27,513 nucleotides of DNA. Origin: Escherichia coli. GTDB lineage: Bacteria > Pseudomonadota > Gammaproteobacteria > Enterobacterales > Enterobacteriaceae. Numbering within the stretch: position 1 is the stretch's first letter; every line of letters begins with the position of its first letter. The stretch lies in assembly GCF_003334385.1 (NCBI RefSeq), contig NZ_QOWN01000057.1, one strand, 5' to 3'. A program made the position numbers and the translations under genes. This document shows, in pieces, positions 2,157 through 26,057 of this stretch. The notes below the pieces were generated by a model, which saw nothing but the letters and a program-made list of their open reading frames with translations, had not been told where the DNA came from and did no database searches.

Positions 2157-4307
2157 TTAGTGGTGCGAAGAGATCTTCACGCCGCCTTCCGGGATTGGAA
2201 CGTACGGTGTTTCTTTGTCAGTACGTTTGTCGCTGTTACGCACCGCAAGCCAGGTTTTGAAACCGTAGAAGATGATGCTGTACACCACAATCAGGAACAG
2301 AATACTCAGACCTGCGTTGGTGTAGTTGTTCACAACGATGTGGTTCATGTTGGCAATCTGCTGCGCCGTCAGGTCAGTACCGTTAGCAATCTTCTCTTTG
2401 TACTGGCTTGCCATGTAGAAGAAGCCTTCCATCTGCGGGTTGGTGCTGAACAGTTTCAGGCCCAGCGCCCAGGTGGTGCAGATAAGCAGCCATACAGCCG
2501 GAACAACAGTTACCCAGATGTATTGGGTGCGCTTCATCTTAATCAGCACAACGGTGCCCAGTACCAGCGCTACGGCTGCCAGCATCTGGTTGGAAATACC
2601 GAACAGCGGCCACAGGCTCTTAACGCCGCCCAGCGGATCGACCACGCCCTGATACAGCAGGTAGCCCCACAGACCCACACAGCCCGCAGTACCGATGATA
2701 CCGGCAACCAGAGAGTCGGTTTTTTTCAGGAACGGGATGAAGTTACCCAGCAGGTCTTGCAGCATAAAGCGGCCAGAACGGGTACCCGCATCCAGCGCGG
2801 TCAGGATGAACAGTGCTTCGAACAGAATACCGAAGTGATACCAGAAGCCCATGTCAGCCATCGGCAGCACTTTGTGGAACACGTGAGCGATACCTACCGC
2901 CAGCGTCGGCGCACCACCTGCACGGTTCAGGACAGAAGGCTCACCAATGTCTTTCGCGGTTTGCAGGATCTGCTCTGGCGAAATCACGAAGCCCCAGGAG
3001 CTGACGGTCGCTGCCGCGTGTGCGGTAACGTCTTTCAGCTGCGCCATGATGATCGGCGCGTTCTCGCCACCCATTTCATGCAGGTTAGGCATGGTGATGC
3101 CAAGGCCAGCAGGCGGGGTGTTCATCGCGAAGTAAAGACCCGGTTCGATGATGGACGCAGCAACCAGCGCCATAATCGCCACGAAGGACTCCATCAGCAT
3201 TGCGCCGTAGCCGATGAAACGCGCGTCGGTTTCATTAGCCAGCAGTTTTGGCGTCGTACCGGAAGAGATCAGCGCGTGGAAGCCAGATACCGCACCACAG
3301 GCGATGGTGATGAACAGGAACGGGAACAGAGCGCCTTTCCACAGCGGGCCAGTACCGTCAATGTACTGGGTCATGGCAGGCATTTTCAGTTCCGGGTTCA
3401 GCACCACGATACCCAGCGCCAGGCCGACGATAACGCCGATTTTCAGGAAGGTTGCCAGATAGTCGCGCGGTGCGAGGATCAGCCACACCGGCAGCAGTGC
3501 GGAAACAAACGCATAGCCAATCAGCGCGAAGGTAATGGTGGTGTCTTTAAAGGTCAGTGCCGGACCCCAGTACGGATCGTGAGCAATCACGCCACCGAAG
3601 TAGATAGAGGCAACCAGCAGCACGATACCAATGACAGAGACTTCACCCACACGCCCCGGACGAATAAAGCGCATGTAGATACCCATAAACAGCGCAATCG
3701 GTACGGTTGAGCAAACGGTGAAGACACCCCACGGACTTTCGGCCAGGGCTTTAACCACAATCAGCGCCAGGACGGCGAGGATGATGATCATGATTAAGAA
3801 ACAGCCAAACAGCGCGATAGTCCCCGGTACTGGTCCCATCTCTTCTTTGATCATCTCACCAAGAGATGCGCCATTACGGCGAGAGGAGATAAACAGCACC
3901 ATAAAGTCCTGAACCGCACCGGCCAGCACGACCCCCGCCAGCAGCCACAGCGTGCCAGGCAGGTAGCCCATCTGCGCGGCGAGAACCGGACCCACCAGCG
4001 GACCAGCACCGGCGATAGCGGCGAAGTGGTGACCAAACAACACGTAACGGTTGGTCGGAACGTAGTTCAGACCGTCGTTGTTAATAACCGCAGGCGTCGC
4101 GCGCGTGGGGTCGAGTTTCATCACCTTCTGGGCGATGTACAGACTGTAGTAGCGATACGCCACCAGATACACCGATACAGAGGCGACCACGATCCACAGG
4201 GCGCTGACGTGCTCCCCCCGACGTAATGCAACTACCGCGAGGCAGAATGCACCGATGATTCCGAGAATCACCCAGGGTATGTGCTTGAATATCTTTTTAG
4301 TATCCAT
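2157..4307 (-). CDS. btsT: Pyruvate/H+ symporter BtsT (CstA family), formerly YjiY
   Basis: Long polytopic membrane protein. Start trimmed from 4322 to MDTKKIFKHIPWVILG..., matching my recollection of the K-12 N-terminus (716 aa). Confidence 0.9.
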   Translation of the reverse strand: MDTKKIFKHIPWVILGIIGAFCLAVVALRRGEHVSALWIVVASVSVYLVAYRYYSLYIAQKVMKLDPTRATPAVINNDGLNYVPTNRYVLFGHHFAAIAGAGPLVGPVLAAQMGYLPGTLWLLAGVVLAGAVQDFMVLFISSRRNGASLGEMIKEEMGPVPGTIALFGCFLIMIIILAVLALIVVKALAESPWGVFTVCSTVPIALFMGIYMRFIRPGRVGEVSVIGIVLLVASIYFGGVIAHDPYWGPALTFKDTTITFALIGYAFVSALLPVWLILAPRDYLATFLKIGVIVGLALGIVVLNPELKMPAMTQYIDGTGPLWKGALFPFLFITIACGAVSGFHALISSGTTPKLLANETDARFIGYGAMLMESFVAIMALVAASIIEPGLYFAMNTPPAGLGITMPNLHEMGGENAPIIMAQLKDVTAHAAATVSSWGFVISPEQILQTAKDIGEPSVLNRAGGAPTLAVGIAHVFHKVLPMADMGFWYHFGILFEALFILTALDAGTRSGRFMLQDLLGNFIPFLKKTDSLVAGIIGTAGCVGLWGYLLYQGVVDPLGGVKSLWPLFGISNQMLAAVALVLGTVVLIKMKRTQYIWVTVVPAVWLLICTTWALGLKLFSTNPQMEGFFYMASQYKEKIANGTDLTAQQIANMNHIVVNNYTNAGLSILFLIVVYSIIFYGFKTWLAVRNSDKRTDKETPYVPIPEGGVKISSHH

Positions 4308-19117: not shown

Positions 19118-19204
19118 TGGTGCGAGGGGGGGGACTTGAACCCCCACGTCCGTAAGGACACTAACACCTGAAGCTAGCGCGTCTACCAATTCCGCCACCT
19201 TCGC
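19118..19204 (-). tRNA. tRNA-Leu (anticodon CAG), 87 nt including CCA
   Basis: The reverse complement reads GCGAAGGTGGCGGAATTGGTAGACGCGCTAGCTTCAGGTGTTAGTGTCCTTACGGACGTGGGGGTTCAAGTCCCCCCCCTCGCACCA: class II tRNA with a long variable arm and a CAG anticodon. Only one copy is present. Confidence 0.95.
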
Positions 19205-19339: not shown

Positions 19340-19495
<156 letters not shown>

Positions 19496-22249: not shown

Positions 22250-22324
22250 ATGACGTTGTCTCCTTATTTGCAAGAGGTGGCGAAGCGCCGCACTTTTGCC
22301 ATTATTTCTCACCCCAATAATTAA
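22250..22324 (+). pseudogene. prfC: Truncated 5' end of prfC (peptide chain release factor RF3): 22 native codons, then 2 foreign codons and a stop
   Basis: The ATG at 22250 encodes [22 protein letters not shown], identical to the RF3 N-terminus as I recall it. The G1 P-loop motif (HPDAGKTT in K-12) is broken after HP; the frame continues NN-stop and the sequence becomes AT-rich and unrelated. Confidence 0.8.
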
Positions 22325-22478
22325 GCCCAAATTAAAGCTCTTTTACTCTTTCAAAGTCCTTTCAGTTAATTGAGTGCTAATCATATAACTCATTTAATAA
22401 CATGATGTTATGTGGTTTCTTTAATTGAAAATTCTTTCATGTAACTTTAAATCGATCAGGTTGCTTTCATCAAAAATC

Positions 22479-22535
22479 TGTACATGTGCTTGTACATAAT
22501 GTACAAAACAGCAGAGGTGTTTTTTTATTTGTACA
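22479..22535. promoter_or_regulatory. Four TGTACA hexamers (22479, 22491, 22500, 22530) upstream of the integrase start; candidate operator or arm-type sites
   Basis: Read directly: ctgTGTACATgtgctTGTACATaaTGTACAAaac...tttatTTGTACAAggtgagtaATG. Confidence 0.3.
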
Positions 22536-22544
22536 AGGTGAGTA

Positions 22545-23756
22545 ATGGCGCTGTCTGATGCGTGGTTGCGTTCAGTCGTTGGAAAGGAACGTGATAAGGT
22601 TTTGGTAAAATCCGATCGTGATGGTCTGTCTGTCAGAGTATCACCGAAAGGTCGCGTAGTGTTCCAATACCGTTATCAATGGGCAGGGAAAGGTGAGCGT
22701 CTTGATATCGGAACTTACCCGGCAACTGGATTAAAAGAGGCCAGAGAAGAAGTTATCCGTCTCCGTGGTGAACTCGAGTCAAACCGTAATCCACGATTGG
22801 TCAAGCAGGCTGAAAAACGAAAAGCTACTGAAGCCATGACGGTAGAGTCTGTGATCCGTGCCTGGTATGAAGCATATTGTGTAAAAAATAAAAAGGGTTC
22901 TGAACAGATACTCCGCTCGTTTGAGCTGCACCTGTTCTCTAAAATCGGGAATATCCCTCACGATGCAGCTACATTGCATGATTGGTTAGAAGTCCTGGAG
23001 CCTCTTAGCACTAAGACTCCAGCAATAGCAGACCGATTGCTAATTAACGCAAAGCAGGCCCATGTCTGGGCGTATAAGAGAAAGCTTATTGAAACTCGCC
23101 CGCTGTCGGACATCACGGGTAAAGATATGGATATCCGTAAAGGTCAGAAGAAACGGTTTCTGACACACGATGAAATTAAAATTCTTTATGCTGCGATCGA
23201 TGGTTCTCGAATGGTTCCCAAATACCGGGCCTTCATTAAACTATTGCTGCATTTCGGCTGTCGTAGTTCAGAGCTGATTACTGCCAGGGTGGACGATTTT
23301 GATTTCATTAATAAGGTATGGACTGTACCACCAGAACGACATAAGACAGGGGACATAACAGGCGAACCGCTAAAGCGGCCCATTATTGAACCTGTTGAAG
23401 AGCTTATAAAATATGTTATCTCTATGAACAACGGTTCCGATATGCTTTTTACTAAGGAAGGAAGCAGGGAGCCGGTTGGTCGGACATCATTGCAGTCGCT
23501 GCCTTACAATTTAATGCAGTACGCATGGCGGCGTTTAGGATATCAATTCCCTCATTGGTCTCTTCATGACTTGAGACGTACAGCTCGAACAAATTTTTCT
23601 GATCTTACTGCGCCTCATATCGCAGAAATTATGCTTGGTCATAAGCTGCCAGGGGTATGGCAAGTTTATGATAAGAGCGATTATCTAGAAGAACAGCGTA
23701 AAGCCTACCAGACATGGTGGGAGAGAGTTGAATCGATAGTTACTTGTACTAGCTAA
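22545..23756 (+). CDS. Tyrosine site-specific integrase (P4-like; N-terminal DUF4102-type arm-binding domain plus catalytic domain)
   Basis: 403 aa. N-terminus MALSDAWLRSVVGKERDKVLVKSDRDGLSVRVSPKGRVVFQYRY is typical of the P4-integrase family. The C-terminus carries catalytic-box residues HDLRRTARTN (H-x-x-R), LGHK and the nucleophile Tyr in VYDKSDY. Confidence 0.9.
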   Translation: MALSDAWLRSVVGKERDKVLVKSDRDGLSVRVSPKGRVVFQYRYQWAGKGERLDIGTYPATGLKEAREEVIRLRGELESNRNPRLVKQAEKRKATEAMTVESVIRAWYEAYCVKNKKGSEQILRSFELHLFSKIGNIPHDAATLHDWLEVLEPLSTKTPAIADRLLINAKQAHVWAYKRKLIETRPLSDITGKDMDIRKGQKKRFLTHDEIKILYAAIDGSRMVPKYRAFIKLLLHFGCRSSELITARVDDFDFINKVWTVPPERHKTGDITGEPLKRPIIEPVEELIKYVISMNNGSDMLFTKEGSREPVGRTSLQSLPYNLMQYAWRRLGYQFPHWSLHDLRRTARTNFSDLTAPHIAEIMLGHKLPGVWQVYDKSDYLEEQRKAYQTWWERVESIVTCTS

Positions 23757-24052
23757 GATTCCCGTTGACAGTTTGCGTAGCCAGAGCGCAATCAAATCTG
23801 ACGGTCTGCTTTGAGCTGAAGAGCGGATCTTATGTTCTTTTCACTGTTTCCTCAAAAGCATCTATTACTCACTTCGTTGCTCTTTGTGTCGTTTTGAAGA
23901 AAATGCCACTTAACAAAGAATTGGATTAACTAACTTTTTTAAAGGATGTACTTGCAACTTCAATCACAGAAAAAATTTCCAGTTACCCTAAAATGGTCAG
24001 CTTAAATCATTTTCAAAAAATTATTCAAATGTGTAGGGGAAGTGGGATTTTT

Positions 24053-25840
24053 ATGAGACTTGAAAAACTAATTTTAAAGAATTTTCGTGGCTATCACGGT
24101 GAACATAGTATTGACATTAATTCACTAACTGCAATCGTTGGACGTAATGATGTTGGAAAAACAACTATCCTAGATGCGCTTGGAGTGTTTTTTGACCATA
24201 AATTATGTAAATATGATGCTGCCGATAAATGTGTTGATAGTTTAGATAATGATGACGTAGCAATTGGGTGTGTTTTTTCAGGGGTTGAAATACCTATTGT
24301 CTTAGATGCTTCATCTATAACTAATCTTGAAAAAGAATACTTATTAAATAATGATAAAAAGTTAGAGATATATAAGGTTTTTACTAAAGGTAAGGGAAAT
24401 GGTAGCATTCAAGCGAAATGTATGGCTCCATCAGTAAAAAGTGCAAAGTCTTTACTCGCTAAAAAAAATGAGGAGCTTAAAAGAATTGCTGAATCTATTG
24501 GTGTGGATGATGCAGACAAAAGAAGTAATGTTAGTTTAAGGCAAGAGATTTACAAGAAAATTGGAGATTTGAAACTTCATGAAAGCTTTGTTAAATTAAA
24601 TGCTGAGGAGGGTAAAGTAATTTGTGATAAAATATACGATAAACTCCCTCATTTTGCACTGTTTCGCGCAGATAGACCTAGCACTGATGAAGAATCAGAA
24701 GTACAAGACCCTATGAAGTCAGCTGTACAAACAGCATTGCAAAAAATTGATGTTCAACTTGAGTCCATTAAAGATAATGTAAAAAAACACGCAATTTCCG
24801 TAGCGAATAACACAATTAATCATTTGCATGATATATCTCCTAATCTTGCATCTGGATTAGTTCCAAAGTTTAAGGTGGAACCTAAGTGGGAAAATATTTT
24901 TAAACTGACACTAGAAGATGATAGAGGTATCGCTATAAATAAACGTGGCAGTGGCGTTAGACGTCTTGTCCTGATTAGCTTTTTTAAAGCAGAAGCAGAA
25001 AGATTGCAAAGTGAATTCCCAGATAAAGGTGTTATCTATGCTATCGAAGAACCTGAAACATCTCAACACCCCTCTAATCAGAGACTCCTTATTGAGGCTT
25101 TTCAAGAGTTAGCAAGTTCAGATAAATGCCAAGTATTAATCACCACTCACGTACCAGCACTCGTAGAAAAGATACCGACTGAGTCTTTACGCCATATAAC
25201 CAGAACTCTTGACAATGGTTTAGAAGTAAAAAATGGTGATGATGATGTTCTTAAGAATATAGCAAATGATCTAGGTGTATACCCCGACAGTAGGGCATCT
25301 GTTCTTGTGTGCGTTGAAGGTCCTAATGATATAAACTTTTTAAAAAATATCGGTAAGGTTTATCTTGATTATGGTGTTAAAAATGTTCCAGACATGATGA
25401 ATGATCCGCGTATAGTTTTTATTCCAATGGGGGGGCATACTCTCAAAGATTGGGTTAATAACAATTATTTGAAAGTTCTAAATAAACCAGAGGTTCATAT
25501 TTATGACAGAGATGTTGCAGTTCCTCCCCAGTATGAAAATGAATGTAATTCAGTAAATGCAAGGAAGGATGGCTCTATAGCATTTATGACCCAAAAAAGA
25601 GAAATGGAGAATTATTTACACCCTGATGCCATTCAGGCTGTTTTCGGTATTACTCTAACCATAGACGATATGACAGATGTTCCTTCCGTTGTATCTAAAT
25701 TAACAGCATTCAATGAAAGCAAAGCGAAGAAGAAACTTAATAAGTTCGCTACAGGTAAAATGAGCTATCAAATGCTCACTGCAAGCGATACAGAAAGAGA
25801 GACGTTATCATGGTTTAATGCTATATATGACAGATTATAA
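24053..25840 (+). CDS. OLD-family ATP-dependent endonuclease-like protein (N-terminal ABC/AAA ATPase plus C-terminal Toprim); candidate single-gene anti-phage / abortive-infection factor
   Basis: Walker A VGRNDVGKTT near the N-terminus; Walker B / D-loop VIYAIEEPETSQHPS; H-loop LITTHVP; C-terminal Toprim-like motifs VLVCVEGPND (conserved Glu) and VHIYDRD (DxD). Start placed at MRLEKLILKNFRGY, with GGGGAAG about 10 nt upstream, rather than the track start 23993. About 595 aa, close to the size I recall for P2 Old. The gene is markedly AT-rich. No UvrD-like helicase partner is adjacent. Confidence 0.8.
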   Translation: MRLEKLILKNFRGYHGEHSIDINSLTAIVGRNDVGKTTILDALGVFFDHKLCKYDAADKCVDSLDNDDVAIGCVFSGVEIPIVLDASSITNLEKEYLLNNDKKLEIYKVFTKGKGNGSIQAKCMAPSVKSAKSLLAKKNEELKRIAESIGVDDADKRSNVSLRQEIYKKIGDLKLHESFVKLNAEEGKVICDKIYDKLPHFALFRADRPSTDEESEVQDPMKSAVQTALQKIDVQLESIKDNVKKHAISVANNTINHLHDISPNLASGLVPKFKVEPKWENIFKLTLEDDRGIAINKRGSGVRRLVLISFFKAEAERLQSEFPDKGVIYAIEEPETSQHPSNQRLLIEAFQELASSDKCQVLITTHVPALVEKIPTESLRHITRTLDNGLEVKNGDDDVLKNIANDLGVYPDSRASVLVCVEGPNDINFLKNIGKVYLDYGVKNVPDMMNDPRIVFIPMGGHTLKDWVNNNYLKVLNKPEVHIYDRDVAVPPQYENECNSVNARKDGSIAFMTQKREMENYLHPDAIQAVFGITLTIDDMTDVPSVVSKLTAFNESKAKKKLNKFATGKMSYQMLTASDTERETLSWFNAIYDRL

Positions 25841-25980
25841 CGTTTGATTGTACGCAATTAGGGATCTTTCTTGATATTTAAAAGGCTGCTCCATACATCG
25901 CCTCACAATAGTGGTGTCGTTATTCGGTTACAAATACTACTACTAGGGGGACGGTGAGTGCTAAGGTAACTGTCCTTATT

Positions 25981-26057
25981 GGCACAGAGCGGATTTCAGA
26001 TTAGGTGTGACTCTGTGCCATAGATGGGTATTAGCTCACATTTGATCTAATACCCAT
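25981..26057. terminator. Two stem-loops in the convergent intergenic region between the OLD-like gene and the alpA-like gene
   Basis: ggcacagag-N21-ctctgtgcc (25981-26019) and atgggtattag-N12-ctaatacccat (26024-26057); the second abuts the stop codon of the alpA-like gene. Confidence 0.35.

Follow-up and report, generated by a model that had tools for sequence, protein, structure and literature searches.

The closest described counterpart of the locus analysed here is the variable Z/fun region of P2-like coliphages, which is reportedly flanked by inverted repeats according to the work of Nilsson, Karlsson and Haggard-Ljungquist of 2004 (Mol Biol Evol 21:1). In the database entries for the 'Z-region' of P2-EC46, P2-EC31 and P2-EC53 (AJ512680, AJ512677 and AJ512682), elements annotated as 'right inverted repeat' and 'left inverted repeat' flank putative lysogenic-conversion ORFs, and the P2 Z/fun locus has been described as a defence hotspot (PMC9519451). 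Two other kinds of known system resemble parts of the locus. Classical morons of temperate phages are defined by a promoter and a terminator only, and the class 1 OLD nucleases, among them P2 Old and, as references here, the Thermus scotoductus OLD protein (6p74) and GajA, combine an N-terminal ABC-type ATPase with a C-terminal domain carrying the E and DxD residues. Small hydrophobic proteins do occur in the accessory regions of prophages, and Ibs, Ldr, TisB and ShoB, which are small hydrophobic proteins or type I toxins of enterobacteria, are about 20–35 aa long.

The window, that is, the whole stretch of Escherichia coli DNA that was analysed (27,513 nt), was compared with these systems. 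Its prophage part could be mapped sharply, as the integrase gene ends in a repeat at the edge of a slot that holds a stand-alone OLD-family gene with a likely role in defence. A reading frame of 21 codons at this edge had been considered in an earlier note as a leader peptide, a small membrane peptide or a chance product of AT-rich DNA, and the comparison described below favours the last of these.

The slot behind the integrase gene and its boundary repeats

The chromosomal part of the window follows the core order opgB...rsmC-holD-rimI-yjjG and leads into the truncated 5' end of prfC (22250–22318, + strand; first 22 codons, annotated by PGAP as a partial CDS), which forms the left junction of the prophage. 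This short stretch is presumably the PrfC start, as the protein of E. coli K-12 and the order of the neighbouring genes in that strain indicate. The prophage then begins with the integrase gene (22545–23756, + strand), which encodes a tyrosine integrase of 403 codons (PGAP; PHROG 1 integrase, E 6e-75), and continues with the ATPase gene and, on the opposite strand, with the early genes yfdQ/R and those for a LexA-type repressor, Cro, Rha and RusA. Over positions 22400–26000 the window matches strain JNEC-KY204 at 100% identity and ETEC1721 at 99.9%.

About 700 of the 5426 complete E. coli genomes carry an integrase of 95% identity at the prfC site. The homology of these genomes to the window ends at 23828–23836 and resumes at 26014, with a different gene in between, encoding a hypothetical protein of 413 aa. 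Since these relatives diverge and then rejoin the window with another gene between the two points, the region 23829–26013 is an exchangeable slot. The 413-aa protein (L005 5554–6795; also in L006 and L007) occurs in most E. coli prfC prophages and gave no match in PADLOC; its gene is a candidate for an uncharacterised defence or conversion gene.

An inverted-repeat element lies at each end of the slot. The A-type element (23742–23831, + strand; about 90 nt; nhmmer E 1.7e-18) takes in the last codons and the stop of the integrase gene, and homology with all other carriers ends at its terminal ...AGCGGATCTT. By blastn it matches AJ512680 at 3249–3169, the part annotated as 'right inverted repeat', and it recurs at 79–87% identity in P2-like prophages, where it is placed between tail-fibre assembly and tail-sheath genes. 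The B-type element at the opposite end (25968–26054, − strand) corresponds to the P2 'left inverted repeat' in a partly decayed form and is convergent with the A-type element. Its profile match covers 26054–25975 (nhmmer E 2.7e-14), alignment A3 sets its inner end at 25968, and positions 25979–26053 are 82.5% identical by blastn to the P2 left repeat (AJ512680 107–47), in inverted orientation. The outer part of the B-type repeat also shows a near-perfect 15-nt inverted repeat with a 4-nt loop (ATGGGTATTAGCTCA/TGATCTAATACCCAT, window 26024–26057). The cargo cassette enclosed by the two elements (23832–25967, + strand; limits taken from the inverted-repeat profiles and alignment A3) measures 2136 bp and contains one gene. 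Its GC content is 35%, against 51% for the core chromosome, and its first cargo-specific triplet is the ATG of the 21-codon reading frame.

The slot shares with P2 Z/fun the same two types of repeat of about 90 nt in convergent arrangement, the precise junction after ...AGCGGAy-r-TT, and a low-GC cargo with a gene of its own; the sampled cargo of other carriers often matches defence families. It differs from P2 in its position, as it lies directly after the integrase gene of a prfC prophage with lambdoid-type early genes and not between the tail genes G and FI, and in the partial decay of the repeat at its right end (25968–26054). The morons of temperate phages offer a second comparison, since here too a single accessory gene of deviant base composition, with an AT-rich 5' flank, is inserted between conserved backbone modules. 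However, the unit in the window is bounded by a specific pair of inverted repeats that is common to many unrelated phage backbones, and neither the promoter nor the terminator by which classical morons are defined is demonstrable for it. What the window slot displays is the arrangement typical of Z/fun, a convergent A/B pair with variable foreign cargo starting right after the inner end of the repeat. The repeat-bounded slot is in this respect a known kind of structure, which here occupies another backbone and has a wide distribution.

The OLD-like ATPase gene of the cargo

The sole gene of the cargo (24053–25840, + strand) encodes a putative OLD-family ATPase-Toprim protein of 595 aa. Its mechanical open reading frame begins at 23993, whereas PGAP and every 595-aa homologue place the start at 24053. 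The Pfam family AAA_15 covers residues 1–371 (E 3e-64), and the best PADLOC match for this ATPase half is AriA, with partial matches to Old and GajA. The curated NCBIfam and Pfam models gave no match to a Toprim domain at the C-terminus, so that sequence profiles recognise the ATPase half only. The C-terminal 220 residues nevertheless contain E422 (in VEGPND), G460-G461 and D485-R-D487, all of them invariant across 28 homologues. An AlphaFold model of the protein (mean pLDDT 84) finds its best full-length fold matches in the OLD nuclease 6p74 (E 1.5e-16), GajA and the retron Eco8 effector, within a range of E 1e-16 to 1e-13 for all three and of E 1e-16 to 1e-15 for the first two. The fold matches to 6p74 and GajA, together with the conserved Toprim-type residues, support the name 'OLD-like' under which the gene had been introduced.

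As in the class 1 OLD nucleases, an N-terminal ABC-type ATPase is followed by a C-terminal domain with the E and DxD residues, and the gene stands alone in its prophage, but the identity to the solved OLD-family proteins is only 12–16%. The difference from PARIS is of another kind: AriA is the best match of the ATPase half, yet the AriB partner is absent from the cargo. Since the cargo encodes no helicase, reverse transcriptase or AriB, the protein resembles a stand-alone (class 1-like) OLD protein. From its sequence and its predicted fold, the ATPase-Toprim protein is likely to act as an anti-phage effector.

A blastn search with the cargo against phage and plasmid collections gave no match among the phages and two plasmids with distant matches to the ATPase gene. 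As this search was nearly empty, the relatives of the cassette were gathered through the protein. Relatives of 595 aa with 80–87% identity were found in many enterobacteria, and the cluster of the exact protein by itself counts 142 member sequences. In these genomes the gene behaves as a wandering single-gene unit (loci L010–L022, L023–L102 and L209–L215), with relatives in this range of identity in a TIR/Nmad2 defence island, a P4-like element, two P2-like prophage ends and a lambdoid nin region, and further ones in an ICE-like element and beside SIR2 or RNase genes. ATPase relatives of the same length and 40–60% identity are spread across many bacterial phyla.

The 21-codon reading frame at the cargo edge

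The micro-ORF (23832–23897, + strand) runs from ATG to TGA over 21 codons, translates as MFFSLFPQKHLLLTSLLFVSF followed by the stop, and occupies the initial 66 nt of the cargo, within its non-coding 5' flank. Its description in the earlier note was accurate with respect to its position between the integrase gene (22545–23756) and the OLD-like ATPase gene (start at 24053), to the hydrophobicity of the peptide (GRAVY 1.31) and to the weak purine-rich stretch upstream, which is GAAGAG at 23818–23823, placed 8 nt before the ATG at 23832. The PGAP annotation of an identical genome calls no gene at 23832–23897.

The length of the frame is not beyond chance. Over the whole window, ATG ORFs that reach or exceed 21 codons number 222, a density of 8.1 per kb, and 105 ORFs of at least 20 codons are present in the 7.5 kb surrounding the micro-ORF. 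When 5000 random sequences were drawn from a first-order Markov model that reproduces the composition of the 296-nt intergenic region, 55% of them carried an ATG ORF with 21 or more codons on the + strand (chance P = 0.55) and 79% had one on either strand. The hydrophobicity of the peptide is less common, as a GRAVY of 1.31 falls in the top 2.4% of the random ORFs, above 97.6% of those drawn at average intergenic composition. The peptide is hydrophobic because T makes up 31 of the 66 nt of the micro-ORF (47%), and codons rich in T specify F, L, V and S.

The 21 residues, the ATG start and this GRAVY value are the features that speak for a small membrane or type I toxin-like peptide, newly arisen in the prophage and specific to the lineage or the strain, and the peptide is similar in length to Ibs, Ldr, TisB and ShoB and, like them, strongly hydrophobic. 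However, those proteins have conserved frames, dedicated promoters, antisense RNAs and families, none of which was found for the micro-ORF. It is conserved in no homologous cassette, its hydrophobic stretch, which P-Q-K-H interrupts, is rather short to cross a membrane, and the only other complete E. coli genome that bears the cassette is identical over 23760–24060 and thus offers no variation to test. A scan for consensus promoters over 23500–24300 on both strands gave no site, and a relaxed scan of five aligned flanks picked up no more than weak -10-like hexamers, some 30 nt ahead of the ATPase ATG, and none conserved near the micro-ORF, so that a promoter-like site upstream of it was not found. 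The Rfam search, carried out over the whole window at the gathering threshold and over 23650–24150 at E up to 10, returned only tRNA and naRNA4, both distant from the micro-ORF, and meaningless eukaryotic matches; no antisense RNA family was matched for the micro-ORF at E up to 10. Its Shine-Dalgarno sequence, in addition, is weak and sequestered in structure. A new membrane or toxin-like peptide is accordingly held to be very improbable.

The Shine-Dalgarno/anti-Shine-Dalgarno duplex of the micro-ORF reaches −3.4 kcal/mol, a value equalled or bettered by 25% of the ATGs in the window, while that of the ATPase gene reaches −6.4. The GAAGAG stretch is itself paired and belongs to the 3' arm of a hairpin (23803–23829, 10 bp, −11.7 kcal/mol) whose stem is present in the MFE structure. 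The micro-ORF would seem to be without a useful level of translation. The hairpin (GGTCTGCTTT/AGAGCGGATC) and the T-rich tail that follows it (TTATGTTCTTTTC), at 23803–23842 on the + strand, were matched in a scan for terminator-like structures. The stem contains 4 G-C and 3 G-U pairs among its 10 bp and closes a 7-nt loop, the structure is located 47 nt past the int stop, and the ATG of the micro-ORF falls within the T-rich tail. The RNA fold of the whole 94-nt repeat region is no stabler than that of shuffled sequences (z = −0.37). A T-run at the start of the cargo is seen in all versions of the cassette (ATGTTCTTTTC in the window, ATGATCTTTTC in L209 and ACAATTTTTCC in L010); the other prfC prophages retain the hairpin and lack the T-run. 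The hairpin at 23803–23829 and the T-run may be regarded as a candidate intrinsic terminator for int, to which they bear a weak resemblance. In this scenario the terminal hairpin of the left repeat and the T-run supplied by the cargo would together end the transcription of the integrase gene.

A comparison across versions of the cassette was possible through the 5' flank of the ATPase gene (23832–24052, + strand), a non-coding stretch of 221 nt with 32% GC that is homologous in five other versions: L010 (an E. coli defence island), L014 (Klebsiella), L025 (Erwinia), L026 (Atlantibacter) and L209 (a relaxase element). The cassettes of L010 and L014 both adjoin TIR and Nmad2 genes. The homology of the flank is invisible to plain blastn and became apparent with MAFFT and with local alignment against shuffled sequences, at 53–67% identity and with scores of 43–54, against 21 ± 3 for the shuffles. 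Downstream, all five copies retain the B-type repeat, and upstream each has a repeat that is either complete or decayed; they are therefore versions of the same repeat-bounded cassette.

In four of the five (L010, L014, L025 and L026) the triplet aligned to the ATG of the micro-ORF is TAC. In L209 the ATG is kept and an indel shifts the frame after 4 codons, giving an unrelated peptide of 32 aa (MIFSHVSWSIYCSIRSVSFGRK...); this recurrence of an ATG at the first position of the cargo counts against the chance reading. In-frame stops or indels are found across the micro-ORF in all five versions, and the DNA identity over its columns (53%) is below that of the remaining flank (63–67%). Conservation of the frame across related islands was the check proposed for the micro-ORF in the earlier note, and the frame is lost in every one of the five homologous cassettes, the outcome for which the note had taken the micro-ORF as refuted.

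These alignments also bear on the possibility that the micro-ORF is a relic of an older small gene, now decayed, that used to stand in front of the ATPase gene. An intact ATG ORF of 36 codons lies over the same DNA in two versions, L010 (MSKTLQFFRVFPKVSIVQCVVIRFVKEKNRLTQDFD, at 3778–3888, where it was also called by the gene finder of the source) and L025. The micro-ORF shares the frame of this ORF for 'FFSLFP/FFRVFP', up to a 2-nt indel, after which the remainder of the 36-codon ORF matches the other frame of the window (..KASITHFVALCVVLKKMPLNKELD and a stop). However, the 36-codon ORF carries a 1-nt deletion in L014 and L026, whose ATPase genes are intact, it is missing from L209 and from the window, and its start lies within a decayed copy of the boundary repeat. 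Between L010 and L025 about 7 non-synonymous and 4–5 synonymous changes were counted in alignment A2, which does not clearly indicate purifying selection, and inspection of the sequence showed no usable Shine-Dalgarno sequence at normal spacing. With the frame shifted in L014 and L026 and absent elsewhere, the 36-codon ORF (L010; L025, A2 columns 48–158) was rejected as a real gene. It is probably a product of chance too, with a small residual probability of a decaying gene, and the origin of the micro-ORF as such a remnant is improbable.

The last rival reading, of a leader peptide or uORF that controls the OLD-family gene by attenuation or translational coupling, would be in keeping with the fact that the micro-ORF precedes the ATPase gene, shares its strand and adjoins a hairpin. 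However, its stop lies 155 nt before the ATPase start, no terminator-like structure was found between the two, and the sole hairpin precedes the micro-ORF instead of following it. The frame, moreover, is not conserved where the flank is homologous. ATPase relatives of 74–84% DNA identity were also compared in four other contexts (a Kosakonia P4-like element, the Serratia chromosome, a Providencia P2-like prophage and a Cronobacter lambdoid nin region), and there the homology begins only at the ribosome-binding site (24040–24051), with nothing shared upstream of it. As the ATPase gene occurs elsewhere without this flank, it functions without that upstream DNA, and control through a leader peptide is extremely improbable. 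The rest of the 221-nt flank, in the AT-rich 155 nt after the micro-ORF, would presumably hold the promoter and the 5' UTR of the defence gene; the scans located no convincing sigma-70 promoter for this gene.

The density of ORFs in the window, the 55% frequency in Markov sequences, the T content of 47% and the lack of frame conservation in the homologous cassettes all point to chance. Thus, from the three readings offered for the micro-ORF, the leader peptide and the small membrane peptide fall away and chance in AT-rich DNA stands. The micro-ORF exists as a string of codons and is, with a probability of about 0.88, a chance reading frame in the T-rich non-coding edge of a horizontally acquired cargo, neither a gene nor a real functional feature. 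Annotation of the 21-codon ORF is unwarranted and it is unimportant as a gene candidate; comparable micro-ORFs at AT-rich cargo edges are to be expected by chance.

Spread of the repeats and exchange of cassettes

The repeats that bound the slot were found well beyond the prfC prophages. A scan of IMG/VR with an exact pattern for the repeat core gave 106 viral contigs. In 81 of the 117 loci examined, which include L002–L009 and L103–L209, the nhmmer profiles revealed the convergent pair (A-type, then B-type), with variable cargo of 1–6 kb in between. After the same repeat, 61 different cargo starts were seen. The left flanks belong to unrelated backbones, such as the FI side of P2, the prfC integrase and the tail-fibre genes of other phages, and the carriers of the repeat include P2-like phages, prfC and other prophages (where it adjoins genes for an integrase or for tail fibres), defence islands of the chromosome and an element with a relaxase. 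Four of the 10 sampled cargo proteins matched PADLOC families (PDC-S51, PD-T7-1, Aga nuclease and PDC-S31). The repeat pair is shared by defence islands and many phage backbones and for this reason may serve as a practical marker for defence cargo, and it may also be a lead on how such cargo moves.

The repeat has the invariant core AATCTGACAGTCyGCT and the inner end AGCGGAC-r-TT. Its inner 14 nt (A-nn-AGCGGAC-rTT) co-vary with the cargo and its outer 58 nt with the backbone, which places the breakpoints of exchange in the invariant core. As judged from these sequences, breakpoints in the core would be compatible with site-specific and with homologous recombination and do not separate the two. 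A tentative proposal, which we consider possible but rather unlikely, is that the A/B repeats of about 90 nt are recognition sites of a trans-acting site-specific recombination system that moves single defence-gene cassettes from one enterobacterial mobile element to another, unrelated one. If so, the crossover would take place in AATCTGACAGTCyGCT..TG.GC.A, and the ATG of the micro-ORF would merely be the first triplet carried in by the cassette. To our knowledge, the repeat bears no convincing resemblance to ERIC, the ends of Mu, shufflon sfx sites, integron core sites or tRNA-Sec.

A different role for the outer end of the repeat, that of closing the three upstream reading frames, was considered and rejected, as this occurs in 10 of 108 copies against 8% of random sequences.

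One A-type copy lies in an unusual setting in E. coli E300010, downstream of nadR (L003 3001–3089), where it replaces the 3' end of a nadS pseudogene and adjoins an IS1. Metabolic and transport genes follow this copy, and obvious defence genes do not; a B-type partner for it was not found (best candidate E 0.75).

Two further observations were made in the chromosomal part of the window. The tRNA-Leu(CAG) gene (19118–19204, − strand) is present in single copy according to ARAGORN, and L001 and L005–L007 are annotated with three tandem copies at this place (the leuQPV position); the coordinates suggest an interval between fhuF and rsmC that is some 200 nt shorter in the window. The single copy could be due to collapse of the tandem array or to an assembly artefact. 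Between this tRNA gene and rsmC lies a match to naRNA4, a REP-derived nucleoid-associated RNA (19345–19427, + strand; Rfam, 73 bits).
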